From Patescibacteria group bacterium (GTDB lineage: Bacteria > Patescibacteriota > UBA1384 > 2-12-FULL-50-11), in contig BOKZ01000001.1 of the NCBI GenBank assembly GCA_016861245.1, positions 188,347 through 252,346 of the forward strand: 64,000 nt of DNA, in the 5' to 3' direction. The notes under the pieces are model-generated. The model worked only from the letters and a program-made list of their open reading frames with translations. It did no database searches and had not been told where the DNA came from. Position numbers and translations under genes: made by a program. Of this stretch, positions 22,859 to 39,106 are shown piece after piece; position 1 is the stretch's first letter; each line of letters starts with the position of its first letter.

Positions 22859-24989
22859 GAGAAATCCTAGGACTTTTTAATAAACCGAATAATAGCAACG
22901 CGAGCGCTAAAGCCGAGAGAAGCATTCCGACTAAGTAGTAGTTTTGTGGTTGATAATAAATAGACAAGCTAACTGTTATAGTTCCATCTGGATTGCTGCG
23001 CACAGACCCCGGGGAACGACTCCGTATAAGCTCAGGATCAACTTCCCAGCGATTGCCAAAATCCTTGTAGATTGTGTGTGACTGCTCAAAAAAGCTTGGC
23101 TGCTTGAATTCCGGCCATGTTATTAGTCGATTACTGCTAGCACATTCAGTTATCTCCTGATTTACGCTAACAACTTCGCACGAAATTGCCGTACCCGAAC
23201 CAATCTTCCAACCATAGTGGAACGACTCTAAGAAATTTAGACTAAACTTTGTATAGTCACGGATAGTAACATCGACTCGATACAGTGTTTCGCTCTCCTT
23301 TACGAACATTAAAGTCGGCCCCGTTATCCTACTCTCCGCGCCAACGACTCTATAAATATTTGGAGAAACTTGGGCTAACCCATCAGGGTTAGCTTTAACA
23401 ACTTTAGCTATAAAGTCTTTATCGGTGTGAATTAGACTAACATCATTTCCATAAACCGCCGGGTCAGAAAATTTATCAAAGTTTGAGGCGTAAACACTTG
23501 ATAAATCAAGAATATAGCCAACATTCTTTTGTCGTAGTAGCTCAAGATCGTAGCGCTCCAAGAACTTTCGCTGCAACGAGTCTTGAAAGTCTATTGGAGA
23601 GACAGAATTCTGAATATAACCACTGCCAGAAAATATACTAAAACTATCCCAGCCACTATTGGAAAGCGGGGTGTTATTAATTACTCGTACTGGTTGATCA
23701 ATAAGTGAATATTGATTAAAAAACGGGTAAACCAAAACACGGCTACTATCCTCCTTTTGTTGCAGAAAATCTTCGTAGCTCTGGAGACTTGCTCTAGCGT
23801 CTGAAAAACTCACTTTCGGCAACCCCCGTAGGAATAGCGGGTAGCTAAGTGCTAGATAACTGAATAGTAGAATTGTTACAAGTGTACGACGGGTAGCCCA
23901 AAGTCCTACTATTGCTAATAGTAGGAATACGACTAGCAGCGGTGCTGCGTGACCAGCTTCTCGAAGCATTGGGTAGAAGTAGGAGATAACAGGTATAGGG
24001 ATTGAAGCGTAGTAACCGCTAGTAAGTATGACAAATGAGAAAAGGCCAATTAAAAAGTAAAGTACTATTTTTCTTTCAGTGTAAGTTCTCTTGAATACTC
24101 CCCAAATAACTAAAGTGAAGAATAAAATACCAAAGAGCGCTGATGGAGCACCAAAGAATTTATCGATAAAAGTAGCTGGAGAGAACCATAGAGTAAAAAT
24201 TCTTAAAAAATTCGTCCGACCTAAATCAGTGAATGAGTTTACGGCTGCATTTGACCGCAACGAATCAACGGAATTCGCCCCAAAGAGTATTGGGAGCAAC
24301 CAATAACAGTTAAGTAACAGCATTGCTCCGAAAGCAGATAGGATGATCTTTAAACGATCTCGGGTGTAGTTTAAAAACAACCAGATCAATAAAGTAAGTG
24401 GTGTAAAAATAAAAAATTGTATTTGTACTGTTGTCAGCCAAGCCAGAAGCATCAAACCAACTACTGTTCTCGTTGAGAAGACTTTTGTACTCAAGAGAAG
24501 ACTTACTAGCCATAAATAAGCTGAGTAGGAGAAGATATAACCCCAATGCCCTGCTAAAAACTTATAAAAAATTGCGGGATTAAAGATAAAGAGCAGGCTT
24601 ACAAGCACTGCAATCAAGCGCTGAGCCGGGAATAGTTTTGAAATTATTAGTCTCCCAGCAAGATAGATTGAAATAAAGAATAAAAGATGGATTACTATTT
24701 GCGTTAGCTCGGGGGTAACTGTTAATCGACTAATAAGATAGGTAAGTAATGGAAAAGGTGTAGAGCTGGCGTAACCAAGTGGCGCGCCCAGGCCAGCGTA
24801 CTGCCAGGCTGAGAGTTCCAGCTTTGGGAAAGTGGAGAAATGCCTAGAGAAATACGGAAAAGTTCCGTCCCAATTATTACCGATGCCACCCCAGGCAACT
24901 AATACGTATCCAATTAGTAAACTTGCGACGAAAATTAACTCAAGTACATTGTGGCGGACAGACAACCAGTTTTTAAGCTTAGTTATCAT
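22839..24989 (-). CDS. large polytopic membrane protein with C-terminal soluble domain (GT-C-like glycosyltransferase candidate)
   Basis: 716 aa; about 12 N-terminal TM helices then a roughly 300-aa hydrophilic domain; layout like ArnT/PMT/YfhO-type enzymes; no firm motif. Confidence 0.4.
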   Translation of the reverse strand: MITKLKNWLSVRHNVLELIFVASLLIGYVLVAWGGIGNNWDGTFPYFSRHFSTFPKLELSAWQYAGLGAPLGYASSTPFPLLTYLISRLTVTPELTQIVIHLLFFISIYLAGRLIISKLFPAQRLIAVLVSLLFIFNPAIFYKFLAGHWGYIFSYSAYLWLVSLLLSTKVFSTRTVVGLMLLAWLTTVQIQFFIFTPLTLLIWLFLNYTRDRLKIILSAFGAMLLLNCYWLLPILFGANSVDSLRSNAAVNSFTDLGRTNFLRIFTLWFSPATFIDKFFGAPSALFGILFFTLVIWGVFKRTYTERKIVLYFLIGLFSFVILTSGYYASIPIPVISYFYPMLREAGHAAPLLVVFLLLAIVGLWATRRTLVTILLFSYLALSYPLFLRGLPKVSFSDARASLQSYEDFLQQKEDSSRVLVYPFFNQYSLIDQPVRVINNTPLSNSGWDSFSIFSGSGYIQNSVSPIDFQDSLQRKFLERYDLELLRQKNVGYILDLSSVYASNFDKFSDPAVYGNDVSLIHTDKDFIAKVVKANPDGLAQVSPNIYRVVGAESRITGPTLMFVKESETLYRVDVTIRDYTKFSLNFLESFHYGWKIGSGTAISCEVVSVNQEITECASSNRLITWPEFKQPSFFEQSHTIYKDFGNRWEVDPELIRSRSPGSVRSNPDGTITVSLSIYYQPQNYYLVGMLLSALALALLLFGLLKSPRISPRKVVD

Positions 24990-25326
24990 CCGTTAAGCTG
25001 GATTCTGTTGTCATCTTAAACGAGTGATAGACATGCAGAACGATAGTAACTGCAAATAGAATGAATACAATTTTTGCTGCTTGTTCAGCTCGATCGGTCC
25101 TATTAATTGCCAGTAGCAGCGCTACACCGATTAAGCCCCAAACAGTCCCTAACGCAAACAATTTGGGCTGTGGCACTTCAACAACTAGCCAAACCAGGAA
25201 GACTAGCGCTACTACATCGCGTACTCTCCAGTTAAGATACATCGCCAAAAAGCCGAAAGCCCCGACAATAATATACGAACGATATCGAATAATATATGAA
25301 GTTATGTTTTTATATAAATCCGTCAT
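24979..25326 (-). CDS. small membrane protein
   Basis: 115 aa, three hydrophobic helices; overlaps both neighbours by a few nt (operon coupling). Confidence 0.35.
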   Translation of the reverse strand: MTDLYKNITSYIIRYRSYIIVGAFGFLAMYLNWRVRDVVALVFLVWLVVEVPQPKLFALGTVWGLIGVALLLAINRTDRAEQAAKIVFILFAVTIVLHVYHSFKMTTESSLTDDN

Positions 25327-26702
25327 TTCTTCAGTAGCTGTCCAGAGACCTTTAAAGACCGGAGACCAAAGTAAGGATAAGCTGTGTAACCCAACTCCTT
25401 GTTTGACACCCTAATATAAACGGTGTGAGAGTCATTATTATTGTCGGCTGAGCCAGAATACTGACCAGCGCCCAACTGCGAGTTCTCGTTAATGACGAAC
25501 CATTCTTGACCATCAAAGGACATCTCAAGCAGAACATCGTTGTACTCAGAGTAGAGACGACTAGCTTGCATCGAAGCTGATAGCACTGGCGACGACAATT
25601 CGCAAACAAAGGTAAAGGAAGCACCAATTGACTTGTTCATGATTAGCGACTTTTCTGAGTAGCTATACCTGGCAACAGCATCACCAGAAGTATCCAAGAT
25701 CATTAGACGATCCGTTGGCTCTCCGGAGGTGCTGCACGAGTATTGTTCTCGTGTTAAACTAATTTGATCAAGATATGTGCCTATAGAAATTAGTGACTGT
25801 TTAGGTCGGGATAGTCGCAACGAAACGCCCTCAATTGAATTCACAGTAGTACCATCGACTTTCACTCTAGAAGCCGCCAAGATACCGTTTATAAAAATGT
25901 GACTCATTCTGGTGGGACGAGACTGGGCTGGGGTAATAACAACGATATACTCCTGAGCGTTTTTAACTCTGCTAGCAAGTGGTAGATATATCCAACCATC
26001 TTTAATAGCACTCACACCAGTGAATTCGACTGTAGAAATGGCTTTCTCTGACGATAGTACCTCTAGTTTTTTTTCATAGAGACTTGCCTCATACCTCCCA
26101 CCGCCATTACCAATGTAGCCGCCTTTAACTGAGATAGATTGAAGCTTGTCAGTCTTGGGGGTAATAGAGAAAAAAACGGGAGAAAATATCGATACTTCTC
26201 TATCAACTTTTGGATCATTTTCAAGATAAACTTCTTGACTGTAAGGGCTGGCATAATCCGAGCTACCACCAGGAACATCTAGCCCAATCAGCCTGACTTG
26301 ATCGATAAATACTTTTGCACGGAGCTGGGGGTTTTTTTTGGCGACTACTATTGAGTCAACCGTTTTCCCATTTAGTTCGAAGTTCTTATAGAAGTATTGA
26401 GGTTCACCGGGGTGGACCGTAAAACTACCGATTAGCAGCGAGTCCGATCCAACAGTGTGAGTAATTAATTGCATCTCAACTAACTCAGTGCTCTCTGTTT
26501 TTGCAATAAAAGCAACTCGATATGAGCCATCACCAAGATTTGTATGGCTAATGATCTCAAGTGATGCGTTCGATTCTCCAAGTTCATAACTAAAGCTATT
26601 CTCTTTTATTTCTTCAAATGCGTTCGGACGTGCACCGAAAACGAGTAACAAAATGAAAAGCAGGGAAAGAAACCAGTACCGATTAGGTGTTAGTTGAAGC
26701 AT
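25323..26702 (-). CDS. secreted/anchored hypothetical protein
   Basis: Start reassigned to MLQLTPNRYWFLSLLFILLLVFGARP (ATG 26702) with a perfect AAGGAG RBS 6-7 nt upstream; beta-rich, no catalytic motif. Confidence 0.45.
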   Translation of the reverse strand: MLQLTPNRYWFLSLLFILLLVFGARPNAFEEIKENSFSYELGESNASLEIISHTNLGDGSYRVAFIAKTESTELVEMQLITHTVGSDSLLIGSFTVHPGEPQYFYKNFELNGKTVDSIVVAKKNPQLRAKVFIDQVRLIGLDVPGGSSDYASPYSQEVYLENDPKVDREVSIFSPVFFSITPKTDKLQSISVKGGYIGNGGGRYEASLYEKKLEVLSSEKAISTVEFTGVSAIKDGWIYLPLASRVKNAQEYIVVITPAQSRPTRMSHIFINGILAASRVKVDGTTVNSIEGVSLRLSRPKQSLISIGTYLDQISLTREQYSCSTSGEPTDRLMILDTSGDAVARYSYSEKSLIMNKSIGASFTFVCELSSPVLSASMQASRLYSEYNDVLLEMSFDGQEWFVINENSQLGAGQYSGSADNNNDSHTVYIRVSNKELGYTAYPYFGLRSLKVSGQLLKK

Positions 26703-28923
26703 AGCGACTCCTTCGATTATATCCGATCCACCAGATAACCATAAGCACGAATAGGAACCCAAACGAGATTATCTGACTGATTGCTGTCAGGATTTGTGGG
26801 TAAAAAGTAATCATAAATGAGTACTGTTCACCTGGTTTAAGACTGGGTTGGCTTATTAGCCAAGCACTTTCCTGTTTTCCCTCGACGGATGAGTTCAGCG
26901 AGCGAAGGCGAAGGCTAGAAGAAATACTTGTTGGGTTATAAAAACAATTTGAATTTCCAAATGAATCGGCACAATTCCCTGGCCTGATGAATAATCGATA
27001 GTTTTCTGAGACGGGTTCGTTCAGGGTAATACTAAGCGGTTGCTCTGTAGCAATAAACTCTCCACTCAATCGCCCTGGCGCGACTTCCCTAAAGGTGACA
27101 GAGTCACTCTCCGCACCGGTAATTTGTAAATAGTTTTGCTGCCAACCAGGTACTTCATAGACACTAATATCCCCAAACTCTTTAACTAACTTATAACCTT
27201 TACGTAATTCTTTATCTAAGCTTGTAACACTAGCTTCAGAAGCCGAAAAATAAACATCACTCAATTGAGTAAGCGGCCAGTTAATATCTTTGTGTAGCAA
27301 CACATATCGTACATTCGATCGTTTCAACTGTTCCATATTAAGGCTGGTAAACGGTTTGCCCGAGCTATCACTAGATTGTCCGGTAATAAAACGTTTGTCG
27401 GTCATTAGCATCAACGGATAAGTCCCCCAGTAACCGTCACTGCCAGATTGCCAGCGTAAAGAGGCTAGGCTTGTGTTTATAATCGGTAACGGTAAGACAA
27501 AAAAATGATCTGGCTGTTCGTTCAGCCAGGCGGCAAGCTGGGTATAGGAATCAGGTACTTTAACTTTTCTGGAGGGAATAACGTCGTTCCTGGCCGGAAA
27601 CACCTGATCCTTCCAAAATGGGGACGAATAAGTGAAAAGGTAAATGATGACTATTACCAGGACACCGCCAGTCTTAGCATATTTGGGCAACGTCGAGCTT
27701 GGGATTAATGAAACAACATAACCAAACAAAACTCCTACGGAGAGTAAGGTTAAAGGCATAAATCTTTGCCAAATTGACCTAAACACCTCACCGATCGCTG
27801 GAAGAGAATAGAAGTAGTTATTAATACTTTTCATTGGCGAGTAATCACCTAGAGTTAGCTGACCAAAAACCAGCAAAAGCACAAAGAAGAAGATTATATT
27901 TGGCGTGAGACGACGGCGTAGCATTAGCCAGCAAACCGTCGCAAATACGCTGACCCCGATAATTGAGGTGGCTGTGGCAGCGTATGTGCTAAACCATAAG
28001 TGATAGGGCTGACCACCAACTTTATCTCCCAAGAAATCTGGCCCAAGTAATTTAAAGTATTCAAGTGGGCGAGTAGAGTTAAACTTTAATAACGCTTCTG
28101 TAGTAATATCGCTGACAGCGCGACGCGACAACTCCCCGCCCACAAACAGTAGCTGTGGTAGTAGCCAAAAAAGATTAACAACAAGCCAAAAAACGCCCGT
28201 TAATCCGGTAAGAAGAAGAGCCCGATATCTTCGCTGTCTTGACTTCGTCCCAATTATCAAAAAGATGGCCAGATAAATGAATAAAACTCCCCAGGTAATT
28301 AGCATGAACGGCGGCGTAACATAGCTTGGAGTTAAAAGCAGTGACCAGGCTAGCGTAATAGTTACTGCGGACATAATAATTGGTTTGGTAGAGTGCAAGC
28401 GATTAATAAATAAGCCTAAAATTAATGGGAAGAAAGCGAAAAAAAACAGTATCCAAGAGAGCGCACTTAGCGCCACAACAGCGTAGACGTTTGTTGAATA
28501 GAGTAACCCAGAAACTACCGCTCCTGCTTTGGCCTTCTCCGGAAAGCACTGCCTAAATAAATAGTAAGTCGACAAACCGGCTCCGACGATAATCGTGTAG
28601 AGAAGGCACTTTTGGACAGCGGCAACCGACAAAACTAAGCCAATTTTTTGTAGAGCTAATAATAACAATCCAAACGGCAATAAAAAGGGGAACTTACTTG
28701 CATCCGGTGTACTCAACGCAATCTTCCCAGAAACTAGATGAAAATAGTCTGCCAAATAAACCTGTTGGTTAATGCCGAAAGAGGCGTCGTCACCCCAAAT
28801 GAATCCGTTAGCGGGGAACCAGGAAAATGCCACTAAACCTAATACTAGAAACACCAACCATGGCCTGGGAGAGATAAACGAGATTAAGCGACGAAATATA
28901 TTCCTACCAGCGCTTACCAGCAT
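26683..28923 (-). CDS. large polytopic membrane protein with C-terminal soluble domain (GT-C-like glycosyltransferase candidate)
   Basis: 746 aa; first extracytoplasmic loop carries WGDD (GT-C DD/DE-like motif); more than 12 TM helices then a roughly 330-aa domain. Confidence 0.45.
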   Translation of the reverse strand: MLVSAGRNIFRRLISFISPRPWLVFLVLGLVAFSWFPANGFIWGDDASFGINQQVYLADYFHLVSGKIALSTPDASKFPFLLPFGLLLLALQKIGLVLSVAAVQKCLLYTIIVGAGLSTYYLFRQCFPEKAKAGAVVSGLLYSTNVYAVVALSALSWILFFFAFFPLILGLFINRLHSTKPIIMSAVTITLAWSLLLTPSYVTPPFMLITWGVLFIYLAIFLIIGTKSRQRRYRALLLTGLTGVFWLVVNLFWLLPQLLFVGGELSRRAVSDITTEALLKFNSTRPLEYFKLLGPDFLGDKVGGQPYHLWFSTYAATATSIIGVSVFATVCWLMLRRRLTPNIIFFFVLLLVFGQLTLGDYSPMKSINNYFYSLPAIGEVFRSIWQRFMPLTLLSVGVLFGYVVSLIPSSTLPKYAKTGGVLVIVIIYLFTYSSPFWKDQVFPARNDVIPSRKVKVPDSYTQLAAWLNEQPDHFFVLPLPIINTSLASLRWQSGSDGYWGTYPLMLMTDKRFITGQSSDSSGKPFTSLNMEQLKRSNVRYVLLHKDINWPLTQLSDVYFSASEASVTSLDKELRKGYKLVKEFGDISVYEVPGWQQNYLQITGAESDSVTFREVAPGRLSGEFIATEQPLSITLNEPVSENYRLFIRPGNCADSFGNSNCFYNPTSISSSLRLRSLNSSVEGKQESAWLISQPSLKPGEQYSFMITFYPQILTAISQIISFGFLFVLMVIWWIGYNRRSRYASTNT

Positions 28924-30016
28924 ATGCCTTCATTTCACGAATAATATTCTGGCTTATGTCGGGTGCGTCGTAAGGGTTGCCAACTTCTACATATTTCTTC
29001 TGAAGCTCGTCGTAGTTATCCATAATATAATTCAGCTTGTCCTTAATTTCAGATTCATCACATTTTGCTAGAAAACTAACACCGTATTCAATTGGCTCTA
29101 GCCAAGCGGTATGGTCACGTAGAATTACACACGGCTTCTTGCTCCAGAATGCCTCTTTTTGTAGTCCACCTGAATCAGTAACAACGAGCTTAGAGTGCTC
29201 AACAAGCGCTACAATCTCTCGGTAGCTGAGTGAACGAATAAACTTAATATTTGAGCCGTCTTTTATAACATTTAGCTCGTCCATCCTTGCTTTCGTGCGC
29301 GGGTGGACTGGGAAGACAAATTGTAGATCCGGATAGTGCCCCACCGCACTAACTAGGGCTTGAAGTGACTCCTTAGTATCGACGTTCTTAGCGCGATGAG
29401 CCGTTAAAACAGCATACTCTCCCTCTTTAACATCAAACTCCTCTAAGATTTTCTTTTCCTCCGTCATATTTTTCGTACACCACTCATAAACTTCAAACAG
29501 TGGGTCGCCGACAAACTTAATATCACCAGCAACATGTTCTTTCTCAAGGTTCTTTGAAGAAATATCCGAAACCGTTAGCATTACATTTGAACAATGGTCT
29601 AGTAGCCGACGATTTATCTCTTCCGGCATATCCATCTCCCACTCGCGACAACCTGCCTCAATATGAGCCAACGGAATATTCATCTTTACAGCGGTAATAC
29701 CGGCTGCGAGTGAGGAGTTTGTATCTCCAAAGACTCCGACCATATCTGGTTTAAACTCTTCAAAATACTTCTCGAGCCTTAAGATAATATTAGCCGTCTG
29801 TTCGCCATGAGTTCCAGATCCAACGTTAAGATTAATGTCTGGCTCTGGCAAACCAAGGTCTTCAAAGAATATTTTATTCATTTCGTAATCGTAATGTTGG
29901 CCGGTATGAACTAACTTAAAATCGATATCGGGATCAGATTTAAAGGCAGGTATTAGCGTTGCCGAACGGATGATTTCTGGCCTTGTACCGATTATGTAGA
30001 CAATTTTTTTCTTCAT
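28904..30016 (-). CDS. wecB: UDP-N-acetylglucosamine 2-epimerase (non-hydrolysing)
   Basis: N-terminal KIVYIIGTRPEIIR (GTRPE motif); 370 aa. Confidence 0.9.
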   Translation of the reverse strand: MKKKIVYIIGTRPEIIRSATLIPAFKSDPDIDFKLVHTGQHYDYEMNKIFFEDLGLPEPDINLNVGSGTHGEQTANIILRLEKYFEEFKPDMVGVFGDTNSSLAAGITAVKMNIPLAHIEAGCREWEMDMPEEINRRLLDHCSNVMLTVSDISSKNLEKEHVAGDIKFVGDPLFEVYEWCTKNMTEEKKILEEFDVKEGEYAVLTAHRAKNVDTKESLQALVSAVGHYPDLQFVFPVHPRTKARMDELNVIKDGSNIKFIRSLSYREIVALVEHSKLVVTDSGGLQKEAFWSKKPCVILRDHTAWLEPIEYGVSFLAKCDESEIKDKLNYIMDNYDELQKKYVEVGNPYDAPDISQNIIREMKAYAGKRW

Positions 30017-31140
30017 TTATTTAATTTCTCCTTGATCCTAATCACGGTCTGCCGTAAATTTGCCTCACTGTAACGACTCCGTGCGTATTCTCTTGATGTA
30101 CTCCTCATACTATTTAACTGTTTTTCTTCTAGTGTGCAAAGGAACGAGGCGACTTCTTCAGGATTAAATGGATCTATAATCCACCCAATCTCTTTCGGTA
30201 CAAGATCTGAATCTATGGTAATCTTCTGCTTGATTTTTTCGGTTAACGCTGCGTATTTCGGAATAATAATTGGCGTACCACTCGCTAACGCCTCAACAGC
30301 TGGTAGGGTAAGGTAAGTCTCATCGGCGTATGACCATACCACATCAGCCTCACTAATTAAGGCGCTAATTTTCTCGCGATCACTTACGTAGCCGAAATAT
30401 TCGACCTGTTCATACATATCGGCTATTTTACTTAGTTGGTCTTGGAATTCCCCAACTCCAATAAATCTAAACTGTAAATCCGGGCGCTGCGTATCTGCCG
30501 CTATTCTTTCTGCCGCTTCAATGAGCGGTAAGCACATCTTATCGGAATCAAGTCGACCTACAAACTGGATAATAATCTTGCCGTCCGGTTTCGCTAGATC
30601 TTTCTCAAAAAAACGGTTTTCTGCGAAGTGCTCGTTGGTGACAATCCGCTCCCTGGGGATAAAGTCTAGCACATTCTCAACACTCCCTCGGGAGTTTACA
30701 ACCACCAAATCGACACCAGCACACCAAAATCTTAAGAAGGATGATTGCCACGCTACTTTCTTGGCAATATATCCGTGATACATAACAACCATTTTTCCCC
30801 CAAACAACCACCTAAACGGCAGGAGCATCAGCGCAATAGCAAAACCATTTGTAATCACCGCTTTGTTTCTTGAGAAGATACCAAATATGATGGCCAGCAA
30901 GAGCAGTGGCAAGTTCCAAAGCATTGAGATGAGAGCGCCAAGATTAGTGAGATAGCCCCATTTATCGTACCTAGGGAAAGGAATAGAGTAATACTTTATT
31001 TCTGGTTGGCGGTGGAATACCCCACCTAATCCAGCGCAAACAATTCGGTAGTCAGTTTGAAGTTGCTGCAGAATGCGCTCGATACAAATCCAACTACCAC
31101 CAGAGAATGCAGGCGTTACTACTAACAACTTACCCTTCAT
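30013..31140 (-). CDS. membrane-associated glycosyltransferase family 4
   Basis: C-terminal GT-B domain (FVGRLDSDKMCLPLIEAAERI); start moved to MKGKLLVV (31140) to avoid a 50-nt overlap with the upstream GT2. Confidence 0.75.
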   Translation of the reverse strand: MKGKLLVVTPAFSGGSWICIERILQQLQTDYRIVCAGLGGVFHRQPEIKYYSIPFPRYDKWGYLTNLGALISMLWNLPLLLLAIIFGIFSRNKAVITNGFAIALMLLPFRWLFGGKMVVMYHGYIAKKVAWQSSFLRFWCAGVDLVVVNSRGSVENVLDFIPRERIVTNEHFAENRFFEKDLAKPDGKIIIQFVGRLDSDKMCLPLIEAAERIAADTQRPDLQFRFIGVGEFQDQLSKIADMYEQVEYFGYVSDREKISALISEADVVWSYADETYLTLPAVEALASGTPIIIPKYAALTEKIKQKITIDSDLVPKEIGWIIDPFNPEEVASFLCTLEEKQLNSMRSTSREYARSRYSEANLRQTVIRIKEKLNK

Positions 31141-31966
31141 TCGTTGATAAATTGGAAAGGACAAGCCCAAGACCGCCAAATAAAAACTCGCAGGTTTTCA
31201 TGAAGAGCATGCCAAGCCCAACGATAGGATTTGCAAATAATTTTCCCGGTTTCGAGAAGAATAGTTTATATCGACCCAGAATTCCCGTTTGTTGGTTCAA
31301 CGAACTACTGCCTTTATTTTTTTGTGCGTATTTTGAGAACTTTTGCGCGTAGTAATACTTCTTTTTAATCGTCTTCCAAAGATTAATTTTACCCTCGTTA
31401 TGAAAAATATAGCTTTTAATACTAGCGATCTTTCCGGTTTTACCAGCGCGCTGAGAAAGGTCCCAATCTTCACCACTTATCAATTTTTCATCGTACCCAC
31501 CAAGTTGCTGATAAAGACTATGTCGAAAGAAGCGGGCGGCCTCCATCCAGCTCACGCCTACATAGAAACTGCGCTCCAGCTTTTTACACTGTGCCCAAAA
31601 GCCCTCGCCAAACGACTCTTCTGGGACTACAACAGCCGCAACATATGGCTTCCCTTCCATTGCTTCAACGCATTCCTGAACGACTGTTGCAGACAATTCC
31701 ATATCACTATCAATAATAAAAACGTATTCACCTCTTGCTTGAGATACGGCGTAGTTTCGTTGAGTGCTGCGCTCTGGACCTTTTTGGAAAAAGGTTACGC
31801 CAAGTTTTCGAGATATCTCAGGAGTCTTATCAGAAGAAAAGTTATCAACTACGATAACTTCAATATTCTTATATGTCTGATTTTTGACCGAAACTATACA
31901 GCGTTCAATGAACTTCTCAGAATTTTTAGTTGGGATAATTACCGATACTAGGACATCTTTCTTCAT
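31130..31966 (-). CDS. glycosyltransferase family 2
   Basis: VSVIIPTKNSEKFIERCIVSVKNQTYKNIEVIVVDNFSSDKT (GT-A motifs), DSD motif. Confidence 0.85.
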   Translation of the reverse strand: MKKDVLVSVIIPTKNSEKFIERCIVSVKNQTYKNIEVIVVDNFSSDKTPEISRKLGVTFFQKGPERSTQRNYAVSQARGEYVFIIDSDMELSATVVQECVEAMEGKPYVAAVVVPEESFGEGFWAQCKKLERSFYVGVSWMEAARFFRHSLYQQLGGYDEKLISGEDWDLSQRAGKTGKIASIKSYIFHNEGKINLWKTIKKKYYYAQKFSKYAQKNKGSSSLNQQTGILGRYKLFFSKPGKLFANPIVGLGMLFMKTCEFLFGGLGLVLSNLSTNEG

Positions 31967-33066
31967 TTGATAAACAGGATTTGCTTAAAACAATTGTAGC
32001 TGTTTTCAAAAGTAATTTCCTTGCTCCACTCCCACGCGGTGTTGCGTAGTCGTGAATATAGCGCCTTATCGTTATATAGAGCGATCACCTGCTCAGCCAG
32101 TGACGTCGGTGTATTGGAAACTGATACTAAACCAGTAACATTATTTTTCGTACTATCGCGTAGGCCATCTACATTATAGACAACAGCTGGCGTTCCTTGG
32201 CTATTTGCCTCAGTTACGATCAGACCCCAGCCTTCCTTGATTGATGTAACTAGAATAGCGTGAGACTGTTGCATAAGTTTTACTTTCTTATCAGAGCTGA
32301 CTCGACCAAGATATGTTACGTCTGAAGAGAATTGACTCTTTTTGATATAAGTCATACAGCGATTAAAATACCCTCCCTCGCCGGCACCAGCGATTATTAG
32401 TTTCAGTTCTGGGATTTTTGATCGCGCGTGCTCAAACGCCTTAATTTGATCAAGCGTACGTTTCATTGGTCTTATGGCGCCAAGAGAGAGTAGGGTGAAG
32501 TCATTAAATTTGGTCACTGACTTTAAACTCGCTACGGGTTCTAGCTCGATGCCGACTGGGACAATTGAAACATTTTCACCTTTAAAACCATATCTACAAA
32601 GATCGTTCTTGGTGCTCTCAGACACTACAATTGCCTTATTACTACTTAGGATCTTTAGGTAAAGAGGCTCTATTAAATAACCCAAAATGTTTAAAGGAAA
32701 AAACATTTGAAAGAACCAAACCTCACGAGCCAATTGATGGAAAAAAAGAGTACGTTTGCTCCTTAAACCATAAAACTGGGAAAAGAACGGGACGGTATTT
32801 ATTTCCTCAATCAGTAAATCTGGACTACCAAATTCCCCACGTTTAGCCGCCCTAAAGGCTTTCAAGTAAACTGAAAGTCTGCCGCCCGATCTAACTACCC
32901 GATATGGGCCTATCTCTCGATTGCCAGCATTTGGGTAAGATGCCGTAAATAGGGTAACATCATGTCCGTCTTTCGCTAACCTAGTTAAAAGCTGGTCCGT
33001 CACCACTTCTGCACCACCGGCCAACGGATGAAACTTGTCTTTCCAGCTCAGCCACAATATCTTCAT
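31963..33066 (-). CDS. glycosyltransferase family 4
   Basis: SIKEGWGLIVTEANSQGTPAVV (E-x7-E motif). Confidence 0.85.
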   Translation of the reverse strand: MKILWLSWKDKFHPLAGGAEVVTDQLLTRLAKDGHDVTLFTASYPNAGNREIGPYRVVRSGGRLSVYLKAFRAAKRGEFGSPDLLIEEINTVPFFSQFYGLRSKRTLFFHQLAREVWFFQMFFPLNILGYLIEPLYLKILSSNKAIVVSESTKNDLCRYGFKGENVSIVPVGIELEPVASLKSVTKFNDFTLLSLGAIRPMKRTLDQIKAFEHARSKIPELKLIIAGAGEGGYFNRCMTYIKKSQFSSDVTYLGRVSSDKKVKLMQQSHAILVTSIKEGWGLIVTEANSQGTPAVVYNVDGLRDSTKNNVTGLVSVSNTPTSLAEQVIALYNDKALYSRLRNTAWEWSKEITFENSYNCFKQILFIK

Positions 33067-33071
33067 GAAGC

Positions 33072-33809
33072 CTATTTAGTCGAACGGTAATAATTTAGGA
33101 TTCTCGCTCGATAAAAAATCGCCAATGTATCTGTTATCATTCGCTTAATGGTTTTGAAATTAATGCTCGATGCAGCGTTATTAAAATTTAACTCTACCGG
33201 CGCCTCAAAGATTCTTCTAAAACCAAATTGCTGAGCAATTACTAATAGTTCCAGATCGATTGCAAATTGCTTTACTAAAGCTTTTGGGAAAATGGTTTTG
33301 GCTACGTTTGCTTTAAAAAACTTAAGCCCGGCTTGGGTATCGGTAATGTTCAGCCCAAAGAGTAATCTAATTAGCAGCTGGTAGCATCGAGAATATATTC
33401 TCCTCAATGGCGGATAATGCACCTTCGAAGCTGGATGTCGTTTTGAGCCGATCACAATATCCGCATCGAATAACTCCATCAAACTAACATATTTATCGAA
33501 TTGCTCTGGGTTAAAGTCCCCGCCCGCATCAGTAAAAGTGATAATTTTCCCAACTGCCTGTTCAACTCCGTATTTAACAGCATATCCCTTGCCCTGATTT
33601 TTTTCGTAGTCAAGAACTCGGACGTGCGGTGAGTTAACCTTTCTTGCTTCTTCAGTAGTTTTGTCGGGTGAACCATCGACAACAACAAGTACTTCGTAGC
33701 TATATGGAAGTAAGTTGTGTACATCAACAATACGCTCAATGGTTTGTCGAACACTTTTTTCCTCTTTGTACGCCGGAATAACTATCGAGAGTTTTATTTG
33801 GTCTTTCAT
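33072..33809 (-). CDS. glycosyltransferase family 2 (polyprenyl-phosphate sugar transferase-like)
   Basis: LSIVIPAYKEEKSVRQTIERIV...VVVDGSPDKT; DAD motif. Confidence 0.85.
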   Translation of the reverse strand: MKDQIKLSIVIPAYKEEKSVRQTIERIVDVHNLLPYSYEVLVVVDGSPDKTTEEARKVNSPHVRVLDYEKNQGKGYAVKYGVEQAVGKIITFTDAGGDFNPEQFDKYVSLMELFDADIVIGSKRHPASKVHYPPLRRIYSRCYQLLIRLLFGLNITDTQAGLKFFKANVAKTIFPKALVKQFAIDLELLVIAQQFGFRRIFEAPVELNFNNAASSINFKTIKRMITDTLAIFYRARILNYYRSTK

Positions 33810-35086
33810 CGTTGAAATAACAAGCTTTTAAGCTGATTGCGTTTTAATATTAGGTAGTCTACAACCATCACACCCAGAAGTGCAATGAATCCCAAGCGTA
33901 ATTGATCTAGCAGTACCGCCACGTTCTGAGGAATTTTAAGACTAGTATAAGTTATGAGAATTAACCCAATTACTAACATCTCGGCAATAAACCAATAGCG
34001 TTGGATAGATAAGAAGTACTGGCTCATCAGGTTCACAAGGGACAATGATATTACTAGCACCGCAGAAATTGAAAGTAAGCTTGCTAGTTCTAGGTAATCG
34101 TTTCCATAAAGTACTCTGACAATCTCCCTATCAAACAACGCGTACAATACCAACAACACTCCCGAACCTATTAGAGTGATCAATATCGCCCCAAAAAGCG
34201 TTTGTACGTGTTTTTCACCGCGGCTTCTCTGTGCAGCAATCAAGGGAAACATGACAGATGTAATCGGTCCTGAGATATAGAATATTATTTTCGCCACTGT
34301 CGATACTGCTACATATTGTCCAGCAATTTCAGGTAGAAAGAATTTCTTTGCTAAAAGCACATCGATATTCATTAATAAGAGTAGGGCGAAGTTACTAGCA
34401 AGTGCGGGTAAGAAATATAGTAATACTTCCCGCTTCTGGGGGAAGTATTCTCCCTTACTTCGTACCGTAGTTTCTCCTTTTAGCATCCTTTTTAGCACTA
34501 CCCAACTCAGGGTAAGTGCACCAAGTGAACCAATAAAGATAGAGAATGTCGCTCCGGACAGACCCATTCCAACTTTAATAAAAATTACGGCGGCAATTAA
34601 CTTCACTAGATACTCAGTAATATTACTAACAGCTAACTGATCAAAACGCTGCGTTCCTTGTAAAACTCCTCGATTGACCGTGAGAACCAACGCAAGAACA
34701 ATTGAGCTAAGCGCTAACCCTAGTGCTTGCTGATTATTTATTGCGAAAAACTTTGAAGCATAAGGAATGGAGAATAGCGCAAGCATGGTAATAAGCACGG
34801 AGCCAAGAACCACCACTTTACTGAACTTCTGGTGAAAATATGAAATACCGGCGATATCTTTTTTAGCGAAGAGATTACTAACGAAATACATAGTCACTGT
34901 CAGTAGTCCACCACTAATAGCAGTGGTGAGCAAAAAATACGAATTAATGGCGCCTAGATCACCAAAATCGGCCGGACCAAGCATCCTCCCCATCACCGAG
35001 CTATAAACGTAGGAGAGTATCCCTCCAATTACTGTTCCAAATGTAATCACAGCGCTACCCTTCAGAAGTGCTGTTATCCTATTCAT
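33806..35086 (-). CDS. polysaccharide flippase (MOP/Wzx-like)
   Basis: Polytopic MOP-type protein; the listed ORF N-terminal extension (79 aa, non-hydrophobic) was trimmed to MNRITALLKG (ATG 35086). Confidence 0.7.
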   Translation of the reverse strand: MNRITALLKGSAVITFGTVIGGILSYVYSSVMGRMLGPADFGDLGAINSYFLLTTAISGGLLTVTMYFVSNLFAKKDIAGISYFHQKFSKVVVLGSVLITMLALFSIPYASKFFAINNQQALGLALSSIVLALVLTVNRGVLQGTQRFDQLAVSNITEYLVKLIAAVIFIKVGMGLSGATFSIFIGSLGALTLSWVVLKRMLKGETTVRSKGEYFPQKREVLLYFLPALASNFALLLLMNIDVLLAKKFFLPEIAGQYVAVSTVAKIIFYISGPITSVMFPLIAAQRSRGEKHVQTLFGAILITLIGSGVLLVLYALFDREIVRVLYGNDYLELASLLSISAVLVISLSLVNLMSQYFLSIQRYWFIAEMLVIGLILITYTSLKIPQNVAVLLDQLRLGFIALLGVMVVDYLILKRNQLKSLLFQR

Positions 35087-37352: not shown

Positions 37353-37396
37353 CTTGGTGAACCGAGATATAATACTCAGGTAATTCTTTACAATTT

Positions 37397-37488
37397 GGAG
37401 AGGTGCCAGAGTGGTCGAATGGAGCTCACTGCTAATGAGTTGTCTGTCGAAAGATGGACCCAGGGTTCGAATCCCTGCCTCTCCGCCA
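37397..37488 (+). tRNA. tRNA-Ser (anticodon GCT), type II with long variable arm, CCA encoded
   Basis: Manual fold: acceptor GGAGAGG/CCTCTCC, anticodon stem GCTCA/TGAGT, loop CUGCUAA, T-arm CAGGG-TTCGAAT-CCCTG. Perfect TATAAT at 37368-37373 upstream. Confidence 0.88.
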
Positions 37489-37524
37489 GAACTTATGACG
37501 AGGTAGGGATTTAGGGGACCGTCT

Positions 37525-37542
37525 TCCCTGCCTCTCCGCCAG
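37525..37542 (+). repeat. 18-bp direct repeat of the tRNA-Ser(GCT) 3' end (TCCCTGCCTCTCCGCCAG)
   Basis: Identical to 37471-37488 plus g; 36 bp downstream of the tRNA. Confidence 0.7.
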
Positions 37543-37548
37543 TTCTCT

Positions 37549-37574
37549 ACCTGCTTAGCGCAGGTATTTTTATT
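37549..37574 (+). terminator. rho-independent terminator
   Basis: ACCTGC-ttagc-GCAGGT then ATTTTTATT. Confidence 0.5.
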
Positions 37575-37602
37575 AGCTAGCGACAGAAGTACTATAGAGC
37601 TT

Positions 37603-37965
37603 ATGAATAACGAACGAGTTTATAAAATGGTGGTCGCCAAAGTATATCCGTTCTACGTAACTAAGGCCGAGAGAAAGGGGCGAGCGAAAAAGGAAGTCGA
37701 TCAGATTATCTGCTGGTTAACCGGATACAACCAAAAAGAGCTGGAAGCAAAGCTGGAACAGGGAACCGATTTTGAAAGTTTCTTCACTCAAGCTCCCAGG
37801 CCGAATCCTCTGCGCAGTCTCATAAGGGGCGTTATTTGCGGAGTTCGCGTAGAAGAGATTCAAGACCCAATTATGCGAGAAGTGCGATATCTCGACAAAC
37901 TCGTCGACGAGCTAGCTCATGGTAAGTCGATGGATAAAATCCTGCGAGCAGAACCCCAGAAATAG
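37603..37965 (+). CDS. DUF2200-like protein
   Basis: N-terminal [37 protein letters not shown] matches the DUF2200 consensus pattern. Confidence 0.45.
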
Positions 37966-37977
37966 CCCCTCAATCCC

Positions 37978-38006
37978 TTGACTTTTAACCAGTTATCTGG
38001 TATATT
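37978..38006 (+). promoter_or_regulatory. sigma70-like promoter TTGACT-17-TATATT
   Basis: -35 at 37978-37983, -10 at 38001-38006; AGGAG RBS before ATG 38058. Confidence 0.55.
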
Positions 38007-38057
38007 TCGGGCACAATTTCGCGTCCTAAAAAATGCGAAACGTACACAGGAGTTAAC

Positions 38058-38783
38058 ATGAAGATCGCTACGATTATCGTTCTCGCCATCTTGGCGAGCT
38101 TGGGCTTTGCCCAAAGTATCGACGACCTGGGCGGCGGCAACGCTCGCCCCACGACACCGCAAACGCGCGGGCCTATCAATTGGTCCGCCCCATTCGAACT
38201 CGCCTTGGGCGAAAACGGCTGGGAGATGTCCGGCGGGCCCTATTCCCGAGAAGTCCTCTTCGGCCTTGTGGCCGAGTTGGTGAACCAGGAGTGGGGCGGA
38301 CAAGTTGGTTCGAGTACGCTCGAACTACTCAACGAGGCCTCCCAGCGCGACGCGCTGTGGAACAACCGCTGGATTGCCGACTCTGCCAGACTGCGTGAGC
38401 GAACGCTCGAACCGAGCGAGTACGGCCTGGAGATCGCTACTGGCGGCTCCAACGGCGGCGGATCGCGCGGCATGAACCTCTCCTTAGGAGGAGTAAACAT
38501 CTCGCTCGAGTCGGGATCGGCCGAAGCGATCATCGTCGTCCATCTTAAGGATCTGGTAACAGGTCGGCGAGTGAAGACGTTCGTTGGTCGAGCCAAGTAC
38601 GGCTCCACCAACCTCGAGGGTCTGTCGGTTGATCGACTGTTTGCCGGCTTCAAAATCGGCAACCAGTTCCGGCTGGATCAATGGGATAACAATCCCGAGT
38701 TCCGGCGCGGAATGATCGCCACGGCCAGGGCTCTTGAGGACTTGCGCAAGAAGATGCGCGAGTTCAAATCCACTTCCCGGTAG
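38058..38783 (+). CDS. secreted hypothetical protein (GC-rich gene)
   Basis: Signal peptide MKIATIIVLAILASLGFAQS; about 60% GC by eye versus about 45-50% for neighbours; own promoter and terminator. Confidence 0.5.
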   Translation: MKIATIIVLAILASLGFAQSIDDLGGGNARPTTPQTRGPINWSAPFELALGENGWEMSGGPYSREVLFGLVAELVNQEWGGQVGSSTLELLNEASQRDALWNNRWIADSARLRERTLEPSEYGLEIATGGSNGGGSRGMNLSLGGVNISLESGSAEAIIVVHLKDLVTGRRVKTFVGRAKYGSTNLEGLSVDRLFAGFKIGNQFRLDQWDNNPEFRRGMIATARALEDLRKKMREFKSTSR

Positions 38784-38800
38784 GTTTCCTGCAGAAATGC

Positions 38801-38822
38801 AAAGGCCTACCGGCCTTTTTTT
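38801..38822 (+). terminator. rho-independent terminator
   Basis: GGCC-tacc-GGCC followed by T7. Confidence 0.6.
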
Positions 38823-38906
38823 ACCCTAAAAAATTGTTGACAACGGGGTTAACCTGTTGTTTACTTTACTTAATCTCAGTAGAGATCTGTACATTAGATT
38901 AATAAA

Positions 38907-38941
38907 ACAAAAAAGCCGCTTCTTCGGAGGCGGCTTTTTTG
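38907..38941. terminator. bidirectional terminator (A-run, 8-bp stem, T-run)
   Basis: aaaaaa-GCCGCTTC-ttcg-GAGGCGGC-tttttt. Confidence 0.55.
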
Positions 38942-39019
38942 TAACTGCGGAAGAGGTGAGATTACTCGCTCAGCTCGTACTTCTTACAGCCTGGTGGCTG
39001 TTCGCAGTCGAACTTTTCG

Positions 39020-39106
39020 CGGAAAGGGTGGGATTCGAACCCACGGAAGCCTTGCAGCCTCACCGCATTTCGAGTGCGGCGCACTAGTCCACTATGCGAC
39101 CTTTCC
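39020..39106 (-). tRNA. tRNA-Ser (anticodon CGA), type II
   Basis: Manual fold of the reverse complement: acceptor GGAAAGG/CCTTTCC, anticodon stem CCGCA/TGCGG, loop CUCGAAA, T-arm GTGGG-TTCGAAT-CCCAC; no encoded CCA. Confidence 0.85.

Follow-up and report, generated by a model that had tools for sequence, protein, structure and literature searches.

A displaced piece of a tRNA 3′ end is the textbook trace of an integration directed at a tRNA gene. The Islander catalogue of Hudson, Lau and Williams assembles islands integrated into tRNA genes (tDNAs), in which a displaced 3′ tDNA fragment is recorded, and 1836 of its 3919 islands fall in the 'T-stem region' class of attP sites (PMC4383910). 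In the Int/attP/attB system of phage mv4 of Lactobacillus delbrueckii, the core is a 17-bp segment at the 3′ end of a tRNA-Ser gene (bioRxiv 10.1101/2023.11.06.565760). The locus described here lies in a 64,000-nucleotide stretch, referred to as the window, of a Patescibacteria group bacterium (assembly GCA_016861245.1, contig BOKZ01000001.1, positions 188,347 to 252,346), in which a tRNA-Ser(GCT) gene is followed by a 53-bp unit composed of a 35-bp spacer and an exact 18-bp copy of the tRNA 3′ end. The comparisons given below suggest that this unit is probably, though far from certainly, the scar of a tRNA-targeting integrative element, and it is the only part of the locus that looks foreign.

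The locus resembles the Islander islands in having an intact tRNA gene followed by a direct and exact copy of its 3′ end, and an empty allele in related strains; its identity block begins at the T-loop/T-stem boundary, as in the 'T-stem region' class. Unlike the Islander islands, the interval measures 35 bp and not kilobases and contains no integrase, and it would fail both the integrase-gene and the length filters; the 53-bp unit is at best the relic of an island, not an island. The resemblance to mv4 lies in the targeting of a tRNA-Ser 3′ end by an identity block of nearly the same length (17–18 bp) and position, whereas the window has no integrase and the sequences are unrelated.

The tRNA-Ser(GCT) gene (37397–37488, plus strand) is intact with an encoded CCA, as evident from ARAGORN and Rfam (RF00005, 55.7 bits), and is 100% identical across all same-species relatives and in the sister species (L014). 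Repeat copy 1, the attL-like core TCCCTGCCTCTCCGCCAG (37472–37489, plus strand), consists of the last 17 nt of this gene and the next G, and spans the last T-loop base, the 3′ strands of the T-stem and of the acceptor stem, the discriminator, CCA and one further base. It is followed by the spacer AACTTATGACGAGGTAGGGATTTAGGGGACCGTCT (37490–37524, plus strand) and by the exact repeat copy 2 (37525–37542, plus strand), which is attR-like and occupies the position of a displaced tDNA fragment. The start of copy 2 lies 36 nt past the tRNA end called by ARAGORN, the gap between the copies being 35 nt and their start-to-start distance 53 bp. The 18-mer occurs exactly twice in the window, and no further occurrence is found even when up to three mismatches are allowed; the chance expectation at this tolerance is 0.04, and two matches were reached in none of 100 shuffles. 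Beyond copy 2 the chromosomal sequence TTCTCTACC resumes, followed by an intrinsic-terminator-like hairpin with a T-run (37548–37566, plus strand), which also forms in the predicted trailer fold.

Comparison of the region among aligned contigs encoding the identical 241-aa exported protein of this locus, together with close variants, revealed two alleles. The filled allele (tRNA, 35-bp spacer, second 18-mer, terminator) is present in the window and in L002, L003, L007, L011, L012, L013 and L161, and L008 shows the same layout with one substitution in repeat copy 2. In the empty allele (L001, L004 and L006), the tRNA continues straight into the terminator sequence TTCTCTACCTGC. The empty form reads tRNA-core-TTCTCTACC and the filled form core-spacer-core-TTCTCTACC, a difference of exactly 53 bp, i.e., the spacer and one repeat copy, and copy 2 abuts the same sequence which, in the empty allele, comes after the tRNA. 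The terminator ends the tRNA transcript in both forms, lying directly after the tRNA in the empty one, and is absent in L014. The DUF2200 gene and the exported-protein gene, which follow downstream, are present in filled and empty forms alike, and the identical 241-aa protein is encoded both with the repeat (window, L002, L003 and L007) and without it (L001, L004 and L006).

The filled L002 and the empty L004 and L006 show 0.0% divergence over the adjacent 1150 bp, while L001 is empty on a different haplotype; the change between the two alleles is therefore recent, and either recurrent or spread by recombination. All four combinations of the 53-bp site with the two tRNA-Ser(CGA) alleles described below occur within 1.5 kb, which indicates frequent recombination or recurrent loss. 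Several contigs end here, as would be expected if the extra 53 bp, or their absence, were a mis-assembly at a short repeat: L007, L009, L012 and L013 end exactly at the repeat, and L096 stops at the tRNA 3′ end. A de Bruijn assembler, however, breaks contigs where both alleles coexist in one sample, and the empty allele was recovered in three sequencing runs and the filled one in at least nine runs besides the window, which makes an assembly artefact extremely improbable.

Two further observations concern the same interval. In the empty contigs L001 (5432–5908) and L004 (1514–1972), the DUF2200 protein is called at 152–158 aa instead of 112–120 aa, which looks like a gene-calling artefact because the starts fall inside the tRNA-Ser(GCT) gene. 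At a contig end of L005 (1–36), 30 nt of unrelated sequence, AAAAAATGTTCGAACTTCGTCCAAAAAACA, are joined to CCGCCAG and the spacer in place of the tRNA body. A 13-mer of this sequence, AAAAACACCGCCA, recurs only in the distant syntenic contig L097 (14303–14315, minus strand), immediately 3′ of its tRNA-Ser(GCT), and the L005 junction may represent a third allele or an element junction.

The existence of integrase elements with the same core was examined in a metagenome collection, which was scanned for the 18-mer without the preceding T-loop 'A' and yielded 59 loci. Forty-eight of the scanned copies lie outside a tRNA T-loop context (orphans) and 15 inside tRNA-Ser genes; some of the orphans are located in GC-rich sequence without an element-like flank and may be chance matches. 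In L150 (117–6744), a tRNA-Ser(GGA) gene is directly followed by a tyrosine integrase gene (PF00589, E 2.6e-33), with an orphan 18-mer 6.5 kb downstream; the identity block between its two ends measures 24 nt and contains the 18-mer, and L102/L146 represent the matching empty site. In L149 (949–6048), tRNA-Ser(GGA) is again directly followed by an integrase gene (PF00589, E 1.8e-38), the orphan lies 5.0 kb downstream, and the identity block between the two ends is exactly the 18 bp. Two apparent further elements, of 3.9 and 10.5 kb, are found in L114 and L151. The earlier note on this DNA, made from the sequence alone, had proposed to look elsewhere for an integrase that recognises this core, and L149 and L150, bounded as they are by the same 18-mer, are candidates for carrying one.

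The remaining genes of L149 and L150 encode a repressor-like helix-turn-helix protein, a weak replication-initiator-like match, a superinfection-immunity-like protein and an NYN-domain protein. Of their open reading frames tested against PHROGs, none was recognised as a phage structural gene, and these elements of 5–6.5 kb differ in this respect from mv4, a complete temperate phage. The far ends of the elements display a conserved promoter-like TTGACA-17-TAACAT facing the orphan core, which in the circular form would read across attP toward the integrase gene. The window shares with L149 and L150, and probably with L114 and L151, the identical 18-bp core at both ends and a spacer-like flank with an inverted partial core, while it retains none of their integrase, regulator, replication-initiator-like and superinfection-immunity-like genes, nor the TTGACA-17-TAACAT motif. 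A short remnant comparable to that of the window is seen in the groundwater contig L123 (1734–2018, minus strand), in which an orphan exact core lies 157 nt past a tRNA-Ser(GCT) gene and no integrase is present. The tRNA's own copy of the core differs at core position 5 in this contig, and the crossover would therefore have been 3′ of that position. Integrase-bearing elements bounded by exactly this core thus exist in other bacteria, and short integrase-less remnants occur elsewhere.

These observations can be accommodated in a scheme of four steps. A small tyrosine-integrase element, whose attP contained the 18-bp tRNA-Ser 3′ end, would have integrated at tRNA-Ser(GCT), duplicating the 18 bp and leaving attL inside the tRNA gene and, as the displaced fragment, attR. 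The element, integrase gene included, would then have been almost wholly deleted, with about 35 bp of its attR-proximal end left between the cores. The resulting scar would now be neutral and unstable, and slippage or recombination between the 18-bp repeats would delete it precisely to give the empty allele, a loss to which the strong hairpin of spacer and copy 2 may contribute. Both alleles would thereafter circulate in the population, and an empty strain would have to recombine homologously with a filled one to regain the 53-bp unit. The repeats would be a good substrate for slippage or short-homology recombination because they start only 53 bp apart and would be brought together by the hairpin; integrase-mediated excision of so short a segment seems sterically unlikely. 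The attP junction predicted for the intact element is GGGGACCGTCT-TCCCTGCCTCTCCGCCAG-AACTTATGACG.

Of the 48 orphan flanks, the one at attR of L149 gives the best local alignment with the spacer: AACTTA-TGACGAGGT-AGGGAT against AACTTAGTGATGCGGTGAGGGAT (19 identities in 23 columns, two gaps). With the maximum over all flanks taken, this weak match has a p value of about 0.034. The spacer also contains GAGGTAGGGA, complementary to the core over its first 10 nt, a 10-bp helix that was found in 137 of 20,000 shuffles (p about 0.007), and the flanks of the metagenomic elements have inverted partial cores of this kind in split form. These features are no more than suggestive of an origin of the spacer from such an element, and the direction and mechanism of the loss are those we infer. 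A transposon or miniature inverted-repeat transposable element typically leaves a short target duplication of 2–14 bp, whereas the 35-bp insert has no terminal inverted repeats and the duplication is 18 bp, equal to the tRNA 3′ end.

The direct and inverted copies (GAGGTAGGGA) of the same tRNA segment in so tiny a non-coding unit could also be of local origin, products of template switching or slippage where the tRNA gene ends, with no mobile element involved. The same short repeats would account for the recurrent loss, and the failure to find an element with this spacer in the viral or metagenome collections is in keeping with such an origin. Nevertheless, about 25 nt of the spacer have no local counterpart. 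A derivation of the spacer from the DUF2200 5′ region, considered on account of 7-mers shared with L014 and with the leader in the window, was rejected, the similarity not being significant (p 0.09 and 0.15). Furthermore, integrase-bearing elements have the same 18-bp block with the same boundaries, and the best match of the spacer is the end of one of them. A local replication error is accordingly considered unlikely, though it remains the most credible of the competing explanations.

The stability of the trailer raises the question of a function. The RNA fold of the trailer has an energy of −35.4 kcal/mol (z −4.35), and none of 200 shuffles was as stable. Spacer and copy 2 could on this basis be a selected 3′-trailer minihelix with a CCA-containing tail, affecting tRNA-Ser maturation, termination or read-through into DUF2200; the low chance frequency of the 10-bp helix with the core, and the conserved promoter-like motif aimed at the orphan core at the right ends of the metagenomic elements, would agree with it. 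The unit is, however, dispensable, as it is missing from near-identical strains that retain tRNA, terminator and DUF2200, and from the sister species L014. Conservation of the spacer is perfect but uninformative, because all its carriers belong to one species with 96–98% identity in the adjacent DNA. Reading the conservation of the spacer in 11–17% divergent contigs as a sign of age or selection was rejected, since the divergence is confined to the secreted-protein gene. No Rfam family other than tRNA scores above threshold, and a functional RNA is regarded as improbable. The tRNA and trailer together (37383–37569) give a sub-threshold match to the Rfam family sX4, a proteobacterial small RNA (28 bits against a gathering threshold of 70, E 3.6e-4), which may be owed to the tRNA part.

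Several points weigh against the interpretation of the unit as an integration scar. Neither the window nor the 15 related loci contain an integrase or any other element gene, and an intact element with this spacer was not found in the viral or metagenome collections, which were searched with the spacer and the junctions. The orphan core and the core in tRNA context were likewise not found in viral contigs, nor was the attL junction in metagenome contigs, and a search with the L005 junction also gave no match. The elements L149 and L150 occupy tRNA-Ser(GGA) in other bacteria and not the tRNA-Ser(GCT) of this lineage. The similarity between the spacer and the L149 flank is short and marginally significant, and may partly reflect a shared complementarity to the core. 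For a deletion to stop precisely where core 1 ends, a second event is required, for which the scheme has no account. L014, being without the spacer, copy 2 and the terminator alike, its DUF2200 gene beginning 2 nt after the tRNA, gives no polarity to the two alleles.

A larger claim had been made in the earlier note, which took the whole 1.5 kb between tRNA-Ser(GCT) and tRNA-Ser(CGA) for a mini-island left by a decayed or excised element. Its description of the parts agrees with the present analysis: the two tRNA-Ser genes bounding the segment are recovered by ARAGORN and Rfam, the 18-bp copy 36 bp downstream of tRNA-Ser(GCT) is exact, and no tyrosine recombinase is encoded in the window, the best E value in tblastn being 0.3 for two integrases from the relevant elements. 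The DUF2200 gene (37603–37965, plus strand; GC 46.6%) is full-length (PF09966, E 1.1e-51), and an exact look-up of its protein gave no record. The predicted secreted protein is encoded at 38058–38783 (plus strand) with a GC content of 59.9% and a GC content at third codon positions (GC3) of 73%, and has a signal-peptide-like N-terminus. This gene is preceded by the promoter-like TTGACT-17-TATATT with a TG extension (37978–38006, plus strand) and followed, past its stop codon, by a stem-loop and T-run seen in the sequence at about 38803–38826.

The extent and content of the proposed island, on the other hand, do not hold. The repeat encloses 35 bp, the cognate displaced fragments of the two tRNA genes do not bracket the 1.5-kb segment, and both protein genes, which are its sole open reading frames, lie outside both repeat intervals. 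All 15 related loci contain the segment, no related genome without it being found among them, and the earlier note's own proviso, that relatives might carry the same segment without the repeat, applies to L001, L004, L006 and L014. The att-scar part of its reading is retained as probable for the 53-bp unit, in view of L149, L150, L102/L146 and L123, and is given up for the 1.5-kb segment.

In favour of a decayed island with DUF2200 and a foreign GC-rich secreted protein as cargo, it may be said that the secreted-protein gene has the highest GC of the 50 genes in the window (mean 47.0%, standard deviation 4.6), that segments of it are exchanged with very divergent alleles, and that DUF2200 is missing at this position in L097 (GCA_964599405.1). 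L097 is a syntenic but distant contig (its phosphodiesterase is 55% identical), in which the block is arranged differently relative to the flanks. Yet it links the secreted-protein gene to the same two tRNAs: the ortholog (38% protein identity, E 2e-45) lies between tRNA-Ser(GCT) and tRNA-Ser(CGA) and is preceded by a similar promoter, TTGACT-17-TATACT. The L097 ortholog has 58.7% GC and 73% GC3 against a background of 51%, and those of L014 and L011 are likewise GC-rich. As high GC and GC3 are common to all orthologs examined, the GC richness is intrinsic to the gene, and high GC3 is a conserved property and no mark of recent import; the codon bias of a strongly expressed gene is one possible cause. 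Both scars, moreover, are on the tRNA side of the genes, the segment is present irrespective of the repeat, and an integrase is lacking, all of which makes the island a very improbable explanation.

DUF2200, the exported-protein gene and both tRNA-Ser genes are thus resident chromosomal genes of a bacterium of the Patescibacteria, or Candidate Phyla Radiation (CPR). Among named organisms, the closest relatives of the neighbouring PilB-like ATPase come from 'Patescibacteria group bacterium' (71%) and Candidatus Berkelbacteria (63%). Proteins of the window are found on a contig of 685 kb, and the host is accordingly a CPR bacterium with a small genome. When genome contigs were searched with this ATPase, the universal QDPDIIMV motif dominated and only homologs of 33–42% identity from many phyla were obtained; a Saccharibacteria host, suggested by the top matches, was rejected in view of the named relatives. 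In L097 (9981–14500), the tRNA-Ser(GCT)/secreted-protein/tRNA-Ser(CGA) block is on the opposite strand and adjoins the ATPase gene, and two extra exported proteins, one of 404 aa and one of 425 aa with a weak fn3 match, are encoded past the phosphodiesterase gene.

The other tRNA gene of the locus carries a second scar. Two tRNA-Ser(CGA) genes, matching in 61 of 92 aligned columns, segregate at one position in one species. Allele A is found in L002 (6890–6977), L004, L006, L011 (8892–8979), L012 and L013, with the terminator directly after it. Allele B, recovered by ARAGORN and Rfam in the window at 39019–39106 (minus strand), is also present in L001, L003, L005, L007, L161 and L014, and is followed by 55 nt and then by the orphan 17-nt fragment AATCTCACCTCTTCCGC (38947–38963, minus strand in the window), which is identical to the 3′ end of the allele A gene. 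A decayed form of this fragment is visible in L097. Downstream of tRNA-Ser(CGA) and its orphan fragment, a perfect-stem hairpin between an A-run and a T-run (38907–38942; inverted repeat with 16-nt arms, 94% complementary), resembling a bidirectional terminator, is kept in both alleles. Each of the two tRNA-Ser genes therefore has a partial copy of a 3′ end on its inner side, with the resident genes between the two scars. Allele B does not conform to the standard model of integration, as it differs over the entire tRNA and not only in the 3′ part. The viral scan for the tRNA-Ser(CGA) fragment was uninformative, as 69 of its 75 matches were ordinary tRNA contexts.

The 241-aa exported protein has a hydrophobic, signal-peptide-like N-terminus, with no cysteine lipobox in the signal-peptide region MKIATIIVLAILASLGFAQS. 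Its family is very small: among 1.84 billion representatives it comprises 9 clusters at 90% identity and 28 at 50%; none of 24 family members matches a Pfam family at E values up to 1, and PDB sequences searched with the family profile yield no CsgG. AlphaFold2 gave an unusable model with a shallow 9-sequence alignment (predicted local distance difference test, pLDDT, 57), while the model built from a 24-sequence alignment has a mean pLDDT of 80. With the latter, each of the top 20 Foldseek matches is to CsgG, the secretion channel for curli (E 3e-7, template modelling score 0.51). The protein is predicted from this model to have a CsgG/PelC-like fold; having neither a sequence-profile match nor the lipobox cysteine, it cannot be shown to belong to the CsgG family (PF03783).

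The gene for this protein is mosaic and hypervariable between strains. L161 differs from the window only in 38057–38416 and L011 only in 38237–38716; identity in the differing segments is 47–78% in 60-nt windows, and the flanks are about 100% identical. Synonymous sites in these segments are saturated, the proportion of synonymous differences (pS) being 0.69–0.75 as against 0.55 for the sister-species ortholog, and the ratio of nonsynonymous to synonymous divergence (dN/dS) is about 0.1. Diversifying selection was rejected on these values, and the patterns of substitution identify the segments as imported old alleles rather than products of rapid local divergence. The locus is a recombination-active spot around an unusual exported protein. 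Patescibacteria are generally thought to lack an outer membrane. The protein might form an oligomeric channel or a surface ring of CsgG type, strongly expressed and encoded beside the type IV pilus ATPase and pilin-like genes, whose diverged segments would be swapped as they face phages or a host cell, the two scarred, inward-facing tRNA-Ser genes marking a recombination hotspot; this proposal is speculative and rather unlikely to be correct as a whole.

Elsewhere in the window, at about 24000–34900, a low-GC (41–43%) cluster for glycosyltransferases and polysaccharide synthesis varies in gene content among strains that are otherwise 95–99% identical. L001 and L014 have rml-type genes in this cluster, and 33176–34420 of the window is only 68% identical to L002 and L011. 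The cluster looks like a variable surface-glycan locus.

The 53-bp scar is a minimal, integrase-less example of a known phenomenon and by itself changes very little. It does advise caution, for a tRNA-end repeat beside a compositionally odd gene is not the same as an island, and it was the comparison of strains that showed what the repeat brackets. The side findings may be the worthier ones, namely the CsgG-like family of 28 clusters, the mosaic alleles, and two very different tRNA-Ser(CGA) genes at one locus. The defined 18-bp core, together with the candidate integrases of L149 and L150, offers possible integration tools for tRNA-Ser sites. For the organism, the scar points to visits by small integrase elements to a Patescibacteria lineage whose genome contig measures about 0.7 Mb, and to a quick loss of the scars that they leave.

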